From a virus (lineage: Duplodnaviria > Caudoviricetes): a DNA stretch of 37,116 bases. Location: IMG/VR virus record IMGVR_UViG_3300008255_000071, positions 1 to 37,116 of that record; one strand, given 5' to 3'. The notes under the pieces were generated by a model that was not told the origin of the DNA, searched no databases, and saw only the letters and a list, made by a program, of their open reading frames with translations. Made by a program: the position numbers and the translations under genes. Of the stretch, positions 7,999 to 19,866 are shown piece after piece (the stretch's first letter is position 1; every line of letters starts with the position of its first letter).

Positions 7999-10900
7999 AT
8001 GGGAATATACGACGACTTCCAAAAACAAAAGGGGTCGTTCGCGGCACCGAAACCCACACCACCAGCTCCGGCTCCGGTAGCTGAAACGCCTTGGTATCGG
8101 AAGCTGTCTGAAAAACTAGGCATTTCTGAGCCCACACCAGCCGCTCAGCCACAGCCAACCCCGCGAACGACTCAAGAGCCCGCTCAGCCTAAGCAGTCCG
8201 TCTACGAGCGATTTCAGGCCAACCAGGGCAGTCTTGACGCACCTGCTCCCGTAGCTAGACCGGCATTCGCCAGAGAAGGGCAGATTCAAGACACGACTGC
8301 TTCGCCAACATCTACCGCCAAAACTGCTCCCCCGCCTCCCCTTTCCGTTTACGAGCAGTTTGAAACTGAGCAGGAGCTTCGTGAGGCGCAATCCGCAGAA
8401 GCTACGCTCCAACAAAAACAGAAAGCGAGGCAGCGGATTCAGGACCTATTCACATATGATCCAGTACGTTTGCTCCGTCCGGGCGCAACACCAGAAAAAA
8501 AGACGAAGCTCAGCGAGGTCCCGGGTATTGCCGCACGCACTGGTGTTGCTGTAGTGTCTACTTTCCCCAAGTTATTCACAGATCCGGAGGTGGCTGATCA
8601 GTTTAACAAAGGCCTCGTCACTGGAATCGAGGCGCTCAAAGGCGCTGTCAAACGAGCTGTGGCCGCCGGTACTCGCAACCTTCCTTTTGGAACTGAAGGG
8701 GACAAGCGCGTCGCGGCTAAACTAGATCTGTCCGCAGAAAAAAACGACGAGTTGGTGCGCGTGATGAGCGAGTATGGAGGCCTTGAGATTAGTAAGCCGG
8801 GCCGGTTTGCAGATAAGATTCAGGACCCGGAGTGGATCGCCTCGGGCTTGGGAATGAACTTACCGAACTTGGCCGCCAGTATGGGTATTGGTTTAACTAC
8901 GGCCGGCTTAGGCGCGCCGGCAGTAGTAGTGGGCGGCTCGCTTTTCACTGTCACCGGCTTGATTGAGGCTGGCAGTTTTTTGAGCGAAGCAGAGAACCTA
9001 GGCCTAGACAAAGAAAAGGCAGAGAAGGCGGCTTTGTTTGTAGGAGTGGCCAACGGCGTGCTGGAGAGCTTGCCAATTATGAGGCTACTTGGGAGCAATC
9101 CAATAGCAGACAAAATCAAGGGGAAGATTCTAGGAGTGGTCGCCAAAGAGATCTTATTGCAGGCGGCTTCTGAAGGTGTGACAGAAAGTATACAAGAGAT
9201 CACAGTTAATGCGGCAATGATGGTTTTAGGCGAGGAGCGCGAATTGTTGGAAGGGACACCCGAGGCCGCCTTCTTTGGCTCGATTTTTGGCTTCCTGTCC
9301 GGCAGTGGCAATGTGATCGTTCGCACGCCAGGCGCGCCGGGCGGCGTGACTGAGCAGCAAAAAGAGGAACCGCAGCCAGAGCCGCTAGGCCCGGACGTGC
9401 CTCCTCCCGGGGAGCAACCGCCACTTGGACCAGAGCCGCAGTCTGAGGAAGGCGATGCAACAGCGCTAAAGACCACGCCGCCGCAAAGCACACAAGAGGT
9501 AGTGGATCGGTATCGCGAACAGATCATTGAGCCGGCGACCAAGGAAGGCCAGGCCGTGATCATAGACCCTGACAAGGGCAAGCCGCTTTTTGGCGGTGAC
9601 TTTGCGCCGGAGAACCACAAGTTTTATTCGCAAGCCGCGGTGCAGCTTTTTGAAGAGTCACTCAAAACAGTAGAAAATCCAGTGGTCCGCTTTATCGCCG
9701 GCGGTCCGGGTAGCGGCAAAACCAACTTCCTGTTGCCACGAGCCACTCAGGAAGGCTTCGATGGAATCGTTTTTGATACCACTTTTGCCGACTACAAATT
9801 CGCCAAAAAAATGTTTGACTTGGCCGAGGCGGCCGGTAAGCAGGTGGAAATGACCGCAATCATCCCAGATCTAAAGACTGCCCGCTTTTACTCACTTAAG
9901 CGTGCGGCTGAAGGCACTGAAAAAGGACGCAGTCTGACTGACGACTTTTTCGCGGAGCGACACTCTCAGGCCCCGGACGCTTTTCTAAGGCTAATTCAAG
10001 AAGGGAAGGATCTAGGGATAGTAGATATTCGAAGAGCCAAAGGGGCAACTGAACTAACTCGCCAGTTGCAAAATCCAGTCGCCACTGACCAGGCCATTGC
10101 AATTCTTAAAGAAGTGTTGTATACTAAGGATGAAATCATTGAAATTATAAAAGATGTCACCTATGAACAATCAACCACTGACACTCGAAACACTGAAGGC
10201 GGCGTACCTATTCCTGGTGGAAGCGGGCCAGATTCAGCAGGAGGTCCCGGACGAGGAACTCGACCAGTTTCTACAGAAGACGCTGGACCAGAGCCAAGCC
10301 AAATAATCGCGACCAACACCAAAAACCTTCGCCAGATTTACGCGAAGGCTGATGGTGCGCAGGCAGCGCTAGACGACCTACGCTTAGAGTTGGAGCTTTC
10401 TGAGCCAGGGGAGCGGACATTCGCGATTAACCCGGACTACACCACCACGCCGCTCCGCAGTCCATCTACTTTCCCGAAATGGGTTAGCCCGGAGAACCGG
10501 TCCAAAGATCTTTTTTTGAAAGTATTTGATAAGCTGGCTTCAGTTGAAGCTATCGCCTTCCCCACTGGTGCACGAACCCGACAGCGTAATTTTTACAACG
10601 AGCTCCTACAAAAAATGGACGAGCGCCTGGGGGTAGACACCACCTCTGAGCGTCGTGCTATACTGGAAGCATATGGCGATGAAACCACAAGAGAAAGCGC
10701 GACTACAGCGACTGGCGAACGCGTCGCTGACCGAGGAGCGACTGCTCCAACAGAAGGAGAAGCAGCCCTCGAAGAGTTCGGATTCGACCTCTCGGCAGAA
10801 CCCGAATACAAAGCTTTAGCCTTCCAATCTTCGCGCGCGCCGGAGTCTAACATCCCGGCTAAGAAAGGCCTTGAATACGACAAGGTGATTAAGCGGAACA

Positions 10901-17071: not shown

Positions 17072-17935
17072 ATGACTGAAAAAGAAAAGTCGGTAGTGAC
17101 CCACGCTGTCACCACCCCCAACAAGCAGCCTCCAACACCGCTAACAGTATTCAAGGCGGCGTTGGCTAACGATTATCAAAAGCAGGTCGTCAACTATTTC
17201 AATGGCGACAAGACCGCGGGTATGCGGTTTTTAACCTCGGCCGCAGACTATGTGCGACGCGTGCCAAAACTCCTAGAGTGCGATCCGCATTCGCTGATCA
17301 ATGCCTTAATGACAATCGCCTCTTTCCGGTTTATGCCCTCGAGCGTGGCCGGCGAAGCGTATATCATCCCGTATGGCGGTCAAGCTCAATTCCAGCCAGG
17401 TTACAAAGGTTATGTGACTCTGTTCTACCGGGCCGGAGTGAAGAAGATTGAGGGCGAGATTATTCGCGAGAACGACGAGTTTTCAATGACCAATGGCGAG
17501 CTGATTCACAAAATAGATCTTCGCAAAACTATGCGCGAGCGCGGTGCGCCGGTTGGCGCATATGTGCGCGTGACTCTGCCGTCCGGAGAAGAAGCGGTTA
17601 AGTATATGAACGGCGGTGATATCATCGCTCACGGCAAGAAGTTCTCTAAGGCATTTAGTAAGGCGGACAGCCCGTGGAACGCGGACAAGGACCCGGAGCT
17701 TTGGATGTGGAAGAAGACTGTGCTGTTGCAAGCGGCCAAGTTTTTACCGAAAAACGACGAGCTAGTTCGAGCTATGGAAGAGGACTTTAAGGACTCCACG
17801 GTGAGCGTGGGCGGTATGCTGGACGCTGAAGGCCCGGCAGTGGGAGCGGCTGACCATACGCCACAAGTGATGCCAGCTGAACCAGTTCCGGATGAGGAAA
17901 ACAACGATGAGGAAATTAAGACAATCAATTTATGA
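17072..17935 (+). CDS. recT: RecT-family ssDNA annealing protein
   Basis: PKLLECDPHSLINAL, GEAYIIPYGGQAQFQPGYKGY, SPW, MWKKTVL, KFLP; acidic C-tail. Confidence 0.93.
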   Translation: MTEKEKSVVTHAVTTPNKQPPTPLTVFKAALANDYQKQVVNYFNGDKTAGMRFLTSAADYVRRVPKLLECDPHSLINALMTIASFRFMPSSVAGEAYIIPYGGQAQFQPGYKGYVTLFYRAGVKKIEGEIIRENDEFSMTNGELIHKIDLRKTMRERGAPVGAYVRVTLPSGEEAVKYMNGGDIIAHGKKFSKAFSKADSPWNADKDPELWMWKKTVLLQAAKFLPKNDELVRAMEEDFKDSTVSVGGMLDAEGPAVGAADHTPQVMPAEPVPDEENNDEEIKTINL

Positions 17936-19866
17936 GCAACACCATTCAGTTACCGATCAGCTCGTTGTCTTACTCCGCACTCACACAACTGCTTCGCAAT
18001 CCGTTGATCTTTAAGCTCAAGTACGTTTTTGGTGTGTACGACGGAAAGATGAGCGTGAGCGGAATGATCGGCCGGGCCGGGCACGAAGCGCTCAAGGCCT
18101 ACTACGGAGGCCACCAAGACTATCCGCTACGAGCGGACCAGTGGCAGGCGCGCGACCTTGGCCTGGCCTATCTCGACACTTTTGACGACAGCGCCATCAA
18201 CTACGGCAAGAACGGTAGCCGCGAATCTATGCTCAAGGGTTATGCGCAGGCAATGGACTTTTACTTTACCGAAGAGCCGCAGTATCACGAGATTCTGATG
18301 TGCGAAGAAAAGATGGACGCCGAGATCAAGACATTGGAAGGCGACATGCTACCGCTACCGGCCGTGGGCGTGCCCGACTTGGTCCACAAGCGCGCTGATG
18401 GCAACGTGGAGATCATTGATACCAAATTTGTGTCTAGCTTCACCAGCTACGAAACAGAGGACTATATCAAGATCGTTCAGGCGCAATTCCTATTTCACTT
18501 GCTGCTTGCTACCAAAGGAATCAAGGCAGACCGCATGTTGTTTCGTGAGATTAAGCGTACGGCCAACAAAGACGGCGGTAATCAGATCCGCGACTATGCC
18601 ATCCCGTTCGAGCACAACCAGTACCGGACTATCTTCTACAACATATTCAAAGATGTGGTCAAATTCCTTTCCACCCCCAACCAGATCTTTTTGCCAAACC
18701 TAGGGGATCTGTTCGATGGCGAGCAAGCCGGACTGTTGTACGCACAAGGCCTGATCAATGCGGATATGAGCGACGTGGAGGTAATGCACAAGGTCAAGGA
18801 CGTGGCTTTTGCCAGCAAGAAGTTCGTCAGCTCACGTTTGGACCGCGTAGAGAATCAGTACCTGAACCCGGAAGAGCGAATCAAGTTGCGTCTAGCTGAG
18901 TTCGGCATCCCGGTGGAGCCTGTGGACGTGAAGACCGGCGCGACGATCACGCAGTATCGCTTTAAGGTGTCGGCCGGCATCCGGATGAGCACGATCGTCA
19001 AGCACAAGGACGATATTGTTCGAGCCTTGGAAAGCACCGGAGAAGTGCGCATATTAGCCCCTATTCCCGGTACAAGCTATGTCGGTATAGAAGTTGAGAA
19101 CAAAACGCGCCAGACGGCCAAAATGGGCCGGCAACACCTAGCTCCAGGCACGCTGTCCCTGCCTATTGGCGTAGATGTGCACGGCGAGGCTATCGGACTA
19201 GACTTAGCCGAGGCACCGCACCTGTTAATCGCCGGCGCAACCGGCTCCGGTAAGAGCGTGTTGCTGCACACTTTGATCACCGCGCTGACTAAGCAAATGG
19301 GGCCGGAGGAGCTGAGAATGATCTTAATTGACCCAAAGCGCGTGGAGCTATCTGCCTTTGATGAAAGCCGTCACCTGCTTGGGCCGATTGTGTACGAGCA
19401 AGAGGACGCCTTCCGCTATCTGACTGAGCTGACTGAGGAGATGGAGCGTCGGTACAAGATCCTGAAAAAAGCCGGCAAGCGCAACATAGCGGAGTTCAAC
19501 GAGAGCAAGCGCAAAGAAAGCTTGAAGATGCCTTATATCGTGCTGGTCATCGATGAGTTCGCTGACTTTATGCTTAGGCGTAAAACTGGCGCGCTGATGG
19601 AGAGCTTAATCGTACGGTTGGCGCAGATGGCCCGAGCCGCAGGAATCCACCTGATCATTGCCACGCAGAGGCCATCAACGGACGTGATTAGCGGACTTAT
19701 AAAAGCTAACTTCCCAACTAGAATCGCTCTAACTACTGCTTCGCCGGTCGATAGCGAAGTCATCCTAGGCAAGCGCGGCGCTGAAAAGCTGGCTGGCAAG
19801 GGAGATTTACTCCTACTCAGCCCTGCCCTCCGCGGACTTAAGCGACTACAAGCATTTTCCCTATGA
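17932..19866 (+). CDS. PD-(D/E)XK nuclease fused to an FtsK/SpoIIIE alpha-beta DNA translocase motor
   Basis: N-half LSYSAL, GRAGHEAL, GVPDLV, IIDTKF, Q; C-half RILAPIPG..YVGIEVEN, HLLIAGATGSGKS, IDPKRVEL, VIDEFAD, RAAGIHLIIATQRPS, ANFPTRI. Confidence 0.9.
   Translation: MSNTIQLPISSLSYSALTQLLRNPLIFKLKYVFGVYDGKMSVSGMIGRAGHEALKAYYGGHQDYPLRADQWQARDLGLAYLDTFDDSAINYGKNGSRESMLKGYAQAMDFYFTEEPQYHEILMCEEKMDAEIKTLEGDMLPLPAVGVPDLVHKRADGNVEIIDTKFVSSFTSYETEDYIKIVQAQFLFHLLLATKGIKADRMLFREIKRTANKDGGNQIRDYAIPFEHNQYRTIFYNIFKDVVKFLSTPNQIFLPNLGDLFDGEQAGLLYAQGLINADMSDVEVMHKVKDVAFASKKFVSSRLDRVENQYLNPEERIKLRLAEFGIPVEPVDVKTGATITQYRFKVSAGIRMSTIVKHKDDIVRALESTGEVRILAPIPGTSYVGIEVENKTRQTAKMGRQHLAPGTLSLPIGVDVHGEAIGLDLAEAPHLLIAGATGSGKSVLLHTLITALTKQMGPEELRMILIDPKRVELSAFDESRHLLGPIVYEQEDAFRYLTELTEEMERRYKILKKAGKRNIAEFNESKRKESLKMPYIVLVIDEFADFMLRRKTGALMESLIVRLAQMARAAGIHLIIATQRPSTDVISGLIKANFPTRIALTTASPVDSEVILGKRGAEKLAGKGDLLLLSPALRGLKRLQAFSL

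Follow-up and report, generated by a model that had tools for sequence, protein, structure and literature searches.

The window, the whole stretch of 37,116 nucleotides that we analysed, is a phage record, complete at 37 kb and bounded by direct terminal repeats, and its gene set includes terminase, major head, amidase, RecT, FtsK and RusA genes (the FtsK-like gene lies at 17932-19866). Comparison of its ORFs of at least 100 aa with PHROGs revealed no integrase, the terminase matches (at most 38% identity) named no host, and the contigs showed no sequence variants. The phage genes have no Shine-Dalgarno (SD) sites and mostly start in the form xxT-ATG-A, with T at -1 in 18 of 24 starts. Together with the aquifer run, these SD-less genes suggest a Patescibacteria-like host.

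At the locus under study, a gene for a 1998-aa protein encloses a kinase domain and, in the +1 frame, a small ORF (Table 1). The large protein matched the Pfam families LPD38 (E 3e-41) and Zeta_toxin (E 4e-11), and so combines an LPD domain with an effector domain in one large multidomain chain, as phage polyvalent proteins do. A published paper and the gene context suggest that it would be packaged in the virion and ejected. The promoter-like site TTGCAA-17-TATACT falls in the helices predicted at the end of the kinase domain, with the hexamers, spacing and placement that the earlier note had given, and is followed by cctATG and a 47-aa ORF, over which the main frame reads as a G/P/S linker, again as described there. 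GC content drops to 41-43% over 10000-10224. A six-codon +1 mini-ORF with its ATG at 10130 (window ~10130-10150, +) is situated at the predicted transcript start and ends just before the nested gene.

We scored start contexts with a matrix trained on 24 SD-less genes of the phage, and compared 153 out-of-frame ATGs from 15 long genes. ATG 10163 ranked first of the 153 and above 21 of the 24 real starts, and a second in-frame ATG at 10154 ranked 16th and is the less likely start. Synonymous recoding of the host frame gave P=0.32 for the start and open +1 frame and P=0.13 for the promoter score, both for the window alone. A promoter scan of 4 kb found 2 sites against 1.6 expected, and sites of the same grade number nine on the plus strand and nine on the minus strand genome-wide. 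In the window alone, apart from the ATG context, the promoter and ORF do not exceed chance, and the evidence from it is weak. The best plus-strand promoter match of the genome (16761-16790, +; TTGACT-18-TATACT) is upstream of the RecT/FtsK genes, and its -10 is the same hexamer as that of the nested promoter.

Table 1. Positions in the window of the host gene, the kinase domain and the nested gene with its signals.
Feature	Position	Strand	Basis or remark
Host gene, polyvalent protein, 1998 aa	7999..13995	+	LPD38 at aa 1710-1883
Rewired zeta-type P-loop kinase domain, ng-zeta1 class	9478..10188	+	Structure model, profile, residues
Kinase Asp, D32 of domain	9571	+	Aligned with ng-zeta1 D56
Kinase Lys, K35 of domain	9580	+	Aligned with ng-zeta1 K59
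Walker A; Lys 9718, K81 of domain	9700-9723	+	Lys aligned with ng-zeta1 K115
Kinase Arg, R142 of domain	9901	+	Aligned with ng-zeta1 R175
Kinase Arg, R151 of domain	9928	+	Aligned with ng-zeta1 R181
-35-like hexamer TTGCAA	10097..10102	+	Across codons I-A-I
Dyad TTCTT-A-AAGAA, possible operator	10103..10113	.	Promoter spacer, window sequence
-10-like hexamer TATACT	10120..10125	+	Codons Y-T
Nested +1 gene, 47 aa	10163..10306	+	ATG 10163 (cctATG) to TAA 10306
Conserved amphipathic helix, peptide residues 31-43	10253..10291	+	+1-frame selection

Class of the kinase domain

In the kinase domain the segment carrying the catalytic Asp (domain residue 32) precedes the P-loop (Walker A, residues 75-82), and the match of the Pfam zeta profile jumps from 11-32 to 90-192. 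An AlphaFold model (AF2, 17-sequence alignment) reached pLDDT 93, and a single-sequence fold was poor (pLDDT 47). The best match of the model was 6EPG (E 3e-9; TM 0.68 over 230 columns), collinear over the full length, compared with TM 0.41-0.45 for streptococcal zeta/PezT. A kinase-family profile built from 13 loci also matched ng-zeta1 (E 2e-28). Five of the six named ng-zeta1 active-site residues have equivalents in the window kinase. The position of ng-zeta1 N75 is Ala in the window and Asn in the consensus of the window's closest subfamily; in ng-zeta1 this residue contacts the lactoyl group of UDP-MurNAc, according to the available text of PMC5923241. Judged by alignment and structure model, the window kinase belongs to the topologically rewired ng-zeta1 class, and not to the streptococcal epsilon/zeta type.

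The available text of the same paper reports that ng-zeta1 phosphorylates UDP-sugars at C4' and lyses E. coli, and that an extended antitoxin of 61 aa, ng-epsilon1, blocks it; this only characterised member of the rewired kinase class is thus lytic and requires a small antitoxin (PMC5923241). By analogy with ng-zeta1, the window kinase would phosphorylate UDP-MurNAc, UDP-GlcNAc and UDP-glucose at C4', and would be toxic.

The small gene and its promoter in homologues

A profile search with the kinase (E<=0.001) returned 1978 clusters, the 150 best-scoring being mostly large proteins, and an ESM Atlas search with the domain returned zeta clusters. Word-indexed protein searches with the kinase domain recovered the window's own protein only, and single-sequence locus scans yielded nothing new. 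Searches for the domain in 26 LPD38 virus records, 2 MAGs, 301 genomes of one phylum, GTDB (pattern search) and PLSDB did not find it. Kinase loci with DNA came to at least 17 distinct ones, a small sample. Duplicates (L031, L043; L035, L040, L044; L036, L039) were excluded. The counts also leave out L034/L038, L047, L048 and L059, which are non-rewired or unrelated P-loops, and a second kinase-domain copy of L055, where two rewired zeta domains lie ~1.2 kb apart and the C-terminal helices are shortened. Short +1 ORFs of L033 and L055 without motif or promoter were excluded from the gene counts.

The earlier note had proposed looking across homologues for a conserved promoter and an open +1 frame. 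Among the matches listed, 12 of the 17 loci have a +1 ORF that is 40-69 codons long and begins in the last kinase helices, the homologue starts having been picked by eye. Seven of these ORFs are wholly nested; the other five extend 26-51 codons beyond the host stop, and in them the conserved helix lies beyond that stop. Several homologues show clear SD sites, though taken one by one these reach significance at just 2-3 of 12 loci. In L033 the place of the overlapping ORF is taken by a free-standing candidate gene of 63 aa, convergent to the kinase gene, with an SD site and a weak motif score (P=0.08); counting this candidate, the small gene is linked to the kinase at 13 of the 17 loci among the matches listed. 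L045, L046, L051 and L055 (4/17 kinase loci) have no motif-bearing small gene; L045 appears intact, and L046 stops at a contig edge. Kinases only 20-26% identical to that of the window still adjoin the small gene. That standard gene callers would miss such a gene, as had been predicted, is illustrated by GenBank record MW202577.1, in which an unannotated +1 gene (L058:3180-3302) overlaps the stop of a 'thymidylate kinase' CDS that encodes a rewired zeta domain protein.

An amphipathic helix motif of 13 residues is common to the 13 peptides, with a fit of 114 against 79±7 for shuffles (maximum 91 of 20). The earlier note had described acidic amphipathic helices: the helix is conserved, and the window peptide is indeed acidic (net charge -5), but acidity is not a family trait, 11 of the 13 members being net positive. 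In 23 LPD38 genes that lack the kinase, a single one of the 90 +1 ORFs starting with ATG reached the motif score. This ORF, L016:6133-6387 (+), belongs to a GNAT-bearing LPD38 gene and has a non-kinase domain upstream, TGTATACT just before an internal ATG, and a helix resembling the motif, which shows that the motif can also occur away from the kinase. The figure of 1/90 indicates that the small gene goes with the kinase domain, as the claim that the two travel together required, and that similar nested helices are possible after other domains.

We then compared the two reading frames over the same bases. In the seven nested loci, mean pairwise BLOSUM for the helix was 0.71 in the +1 frame against 0.10 in the host frame. 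The window peptide is divergent within this family (leave-one-out P=0.012 against recoding and 0.075 against shuffles). A +1 motif from the other clade fitted 58 of 73 distant protein-only linkers better than shuffles (p=1e-8; control stretch 30/72), and misfitted the window's 55 closest protein homologues (24/55). In these 55, the linker follows its own motif, [VLI][SP]x[EKQ][DN][RG][ASTP][ND][KQE], whose residue classes agree at the second base of the codon and differ at the first, which is the signature of +1-frame selection. Accordingly, codon position 2 was conserved (IC 8.96 vs 5.52) and position 1 was not (5.19 vs 5.27), and a control stretch was flat. Residues 31-40 of the window peptide were +1-compatible in 45 of the 55 (p=2e-7, the best of 8 blocks tested), compared with only 27 of 55 for the matching host-frame block; the two frames fit similarly well at residues 13-22. 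A dipeptide compatible with a +1 ATG occurred in 46/56 and 75/79 proteins, against 38 and 57 after shuffling. These results bear out the earlier proposal that the alternate frame is under selection.

The promoter was also traced in homologues. In 150 homologous proteins, the -10 column holds Tyr in 91%, with N/T/D as the next residue, and eight codons earlier most sequences have [LIFV][DA]; the conserved residue pairs are able to spell TTGACA and TATAAT/TATACT/TATGAT. Among the matches listed, 8 of the 17 loci have a promoter-like site that scores 9/12 or better, with a 17-nt spacer and in one shared codon register; none of 34 control windows taken from the same kinase domains has one. Much of this match is explained by the protein sequence itself, and a helix N-cap is another possible reading of Y-[N/T/D]. 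An unanchored promoter recoding test gave a Fisher P of 0.066, and a Tyr-anchored test of synonymous choice favoured the consensus (112 vs 98.1, P=0.00025; 14 of 17 loci, three being gapped). At the matching place ng-zeta1 scores at most 7/12. The separate promoter suggested by the earlier note thus recurs in homologues, and the promoter tests and ATG context together indicate that the nested gene has conserved transcription and translation signals of its own. Sequence comparison therefore leads us to hold, with high confidence, that the nested +1 gene is real, on the strength of its homologues and not of the window alone.

Role of the nested peptide and competing explanations

The linkage to the kinase suggests that the nested peptide is its antitoxin, the reading that we favour with moderate confidence. 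Two linked protein-coding genes stay together here, at 13 of 17 kinase loci against 1/90 in kinase-less relatives, as in type II toxin-antitoxin pairs, and the kinase with its overprinted partner forms a recurring module, likely a new layout of such a pair. By sequence the peptide is not an epsilon antitoxin. It showed no likeness to ng-epsilon1 (motif P=0.65; hhalign probability 0.1%), and none of 12 peptides matched an epsilon family in Pfam or the PDB. No informative Pfam or PHROG family was matched, and the window peptide gave no match in word-indexed protein searches and no usable match in the ESM Atlas; a match to DarA (E 0.11) was taken as chance. Since it is no epsilon by sequence, the peptide may act like ng-epsilon1 from outside that family.

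In the antitoxin reading, the kinase, if it behaves as ng-zeta1 does, would drain cell-wall synthesis through phosphorylation of UDP-sugars at C4'. The gene context suggests that the small gene could be transcribed by host sigma70 RNA polymerase without depending on the late giant gene. The peptide would probably act in the manner of ng-epsilon1, as a short and partly unfolded chain docking its helix on the kinase, and would shield the infected cell while kinase-bearing protein is produced in many copies for packaging; it could also switch off kinase delivered by the virion. Since the domain itself or the sequence directly after it holds promoter, start and antidote, the unit could shuffle into mid-protein positions without losing immunity. 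A broader and somewhat doubtful proposal is that this is a widespread self-immunising virion cargo module that also serves as a timer, the virion kinase stalling envelope synthesis until the early peptide acts. If so, the module would be insertable mid-way into any giant ejected protein.

The nested gene could instead be real and encode an early phage protein unrelated to the kinase, which hitchhikes on a linker tolerant of overprinting. The L016 ORF, with an extended -10 and a motif-scoring helix after a different domain, would fit this, as would a second promoter-plus-ORF candidate behind the next domain of the same window gene (see below), the small gene's absence at 4/17 kinase loci, and the wide variation of the peptides in charge and length. 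We regard this explanation as unlikely, because a hitchhiker would not be expected to adjoin the kinase in three layouts (nested, stop-overlapping and free convergent), to be kept beside kinases so distant from that of the window, and to be nearly absent from kinase-less relatives.

A true kinase partner that does not neutralise a toxin, such as a folding or packaging chaperone or the tuner of a non-lethal enzyme, would yield the same linkage data as an antitoxin. The toxicity of the window kinase is putative and its substrate-contact position N75 is Ala, which would suit such a partner; however, the one characterised rewired kinase is lytic and needs a small antitoxin (available text of PMC5923241), and a separate sigma70-like promoter would suit pre-loading of an inhibitor more than co-expression with a late protein. 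We consider a partner of this kind improbable. It is just as improbable that the window ORF and promoter are a relic in decay or arose by chance from a helix N-cap and a linker low in Leu/Ile/Val/Met: the recoding values, the 18 equal-grade genome sites, the lack of a database match for the window peptide and an ATG-started open +1 stretch over the same helices of ng-zeta1 itself (without a good promoter) would allow this, but the top rank of the ATG context, the conservation of residues 31-40 in the +1 and not the host frame among the 55 closest homologues, and the motif at five loci where the host frame has ended all argue against it.

Relation to known systems

We compared the proposed antitoxin module with described systems. 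Lambda Rz/Rz1 embedded spanins are an example of a +1-frame gene lying wholly inside another phage gene, with a product that partners the host protein. Rz and Rz1 are lysis proteins, with neither a toxin nor a promoter-in-domain module.

The closest counterpart is ng-epsilon1/ng-zeta1 of N. gonorrhoeae conjugative plasmids (PMC5923241; 6EPG/6EPH/6EPI), for which the available text gives the same rewired topology and the residues D56/K59/K115/R175/R181 that the window kinase keeps. Partner size is similar (61 aa for ng-epsilon1, 40-69 aa for the nested peptides). However, ng-epsilon1 is encoded by a separate gene upstream of the toxin in a bicistron (pEP5289), whereas the nested partner is overprinted downstream; and ng-zeta1 has a C-terminal OB fold, whereas the window kinase lies in the interior of a phage polyvalent protein. 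Streptococcal epsilon/zeta and PezAT likewise pair a zeta-superfamily P-loop kinase with a small helical partner, as far as the available texts describe them (PMC10532202; PMC5923241), but there epsilon is a three-helix bundle of ~90 aa from an upstream gene, compared with 47 aa and a downstream position in the window.

Internal promoters and starts of comparable kind have been reported. In mqsRA the toxin likewise comes first, and sigma70 promoters inside the toxin ORF drive the antitoxin alone; as presented in the available text, MqsA is an ordinary downstream gene without overprinting, and the toxin is a protein in its own right (PMC6918082). Rpn genes-within-genes also yield a small antitoxin from an intragenic promoter and start, but Rpn-S, in the accessible portion of the preprint, is the in-frame C-terminal domain, whereas the window product is read in a different frame and differs in sequence (bioRxiv 10.1101/2023.05.02.539157). 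Transcripts from rhs internal promoters give in-frame toxin and a downstream immunity gene, and the available text mentions no nested partner (PMC7043789). Zeta-like kinase is known as cargo of polyvalent and MuF proteins, and a nested partner gene for the polyvalent cargo is not mentioned in the accessible part of that source (PMC5512222); the term 'promoter' is absent from the available text of the MuF paper (PMC5576092). In the literature outside subscription papers, we found no description of a partner gene nested out of frame downstream of a zeta domain. Intragenic antitoxin promoters, in-frame internal antitoxins and zeta cargo are known, and the overprinted out-of-frame partner behind a zeta kinase is likely to be new.

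Toxic domains placed mid-frame in polyvalent proteins leave no room for an adjacent ordinary immunity gene, which makes the survival of the producer cell a puzzle. A promoter and antidote inside the domain and linker would answer this, and would explain linkers of G/P/S/R that look like junk. The domain may be present in as many as about 2000 protein clusters, and other effector domains of polyvalent proteins may follow the same principle. The peptides form a new family missed by annotation, and conservation of codon position 2 in linkers offers a way to seek, with nothing more than protein sequences, the partners of other cargo domains.

A second nested candidate was observed in the same window gene, at 10656-10819 (+), with an extended -10 TGcTATACT (10656-10664) and an ATG at 10673 eight bases on. 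The ORF starting there is in the +1 frame, encodes 48 aa, follows the domain at aa 770-892 and has a start context ranked 75 of 153. The domain preceding it (window 10306-10680, +) has no significant Pfam match and recurs, at 31-45% identity, in five other kinase-bearing proteins, where it either precedes or follows the kinase. Four of five homologues of the aa 770-892 domain end in Y[GEA], which is able to hold a +1 ATG.
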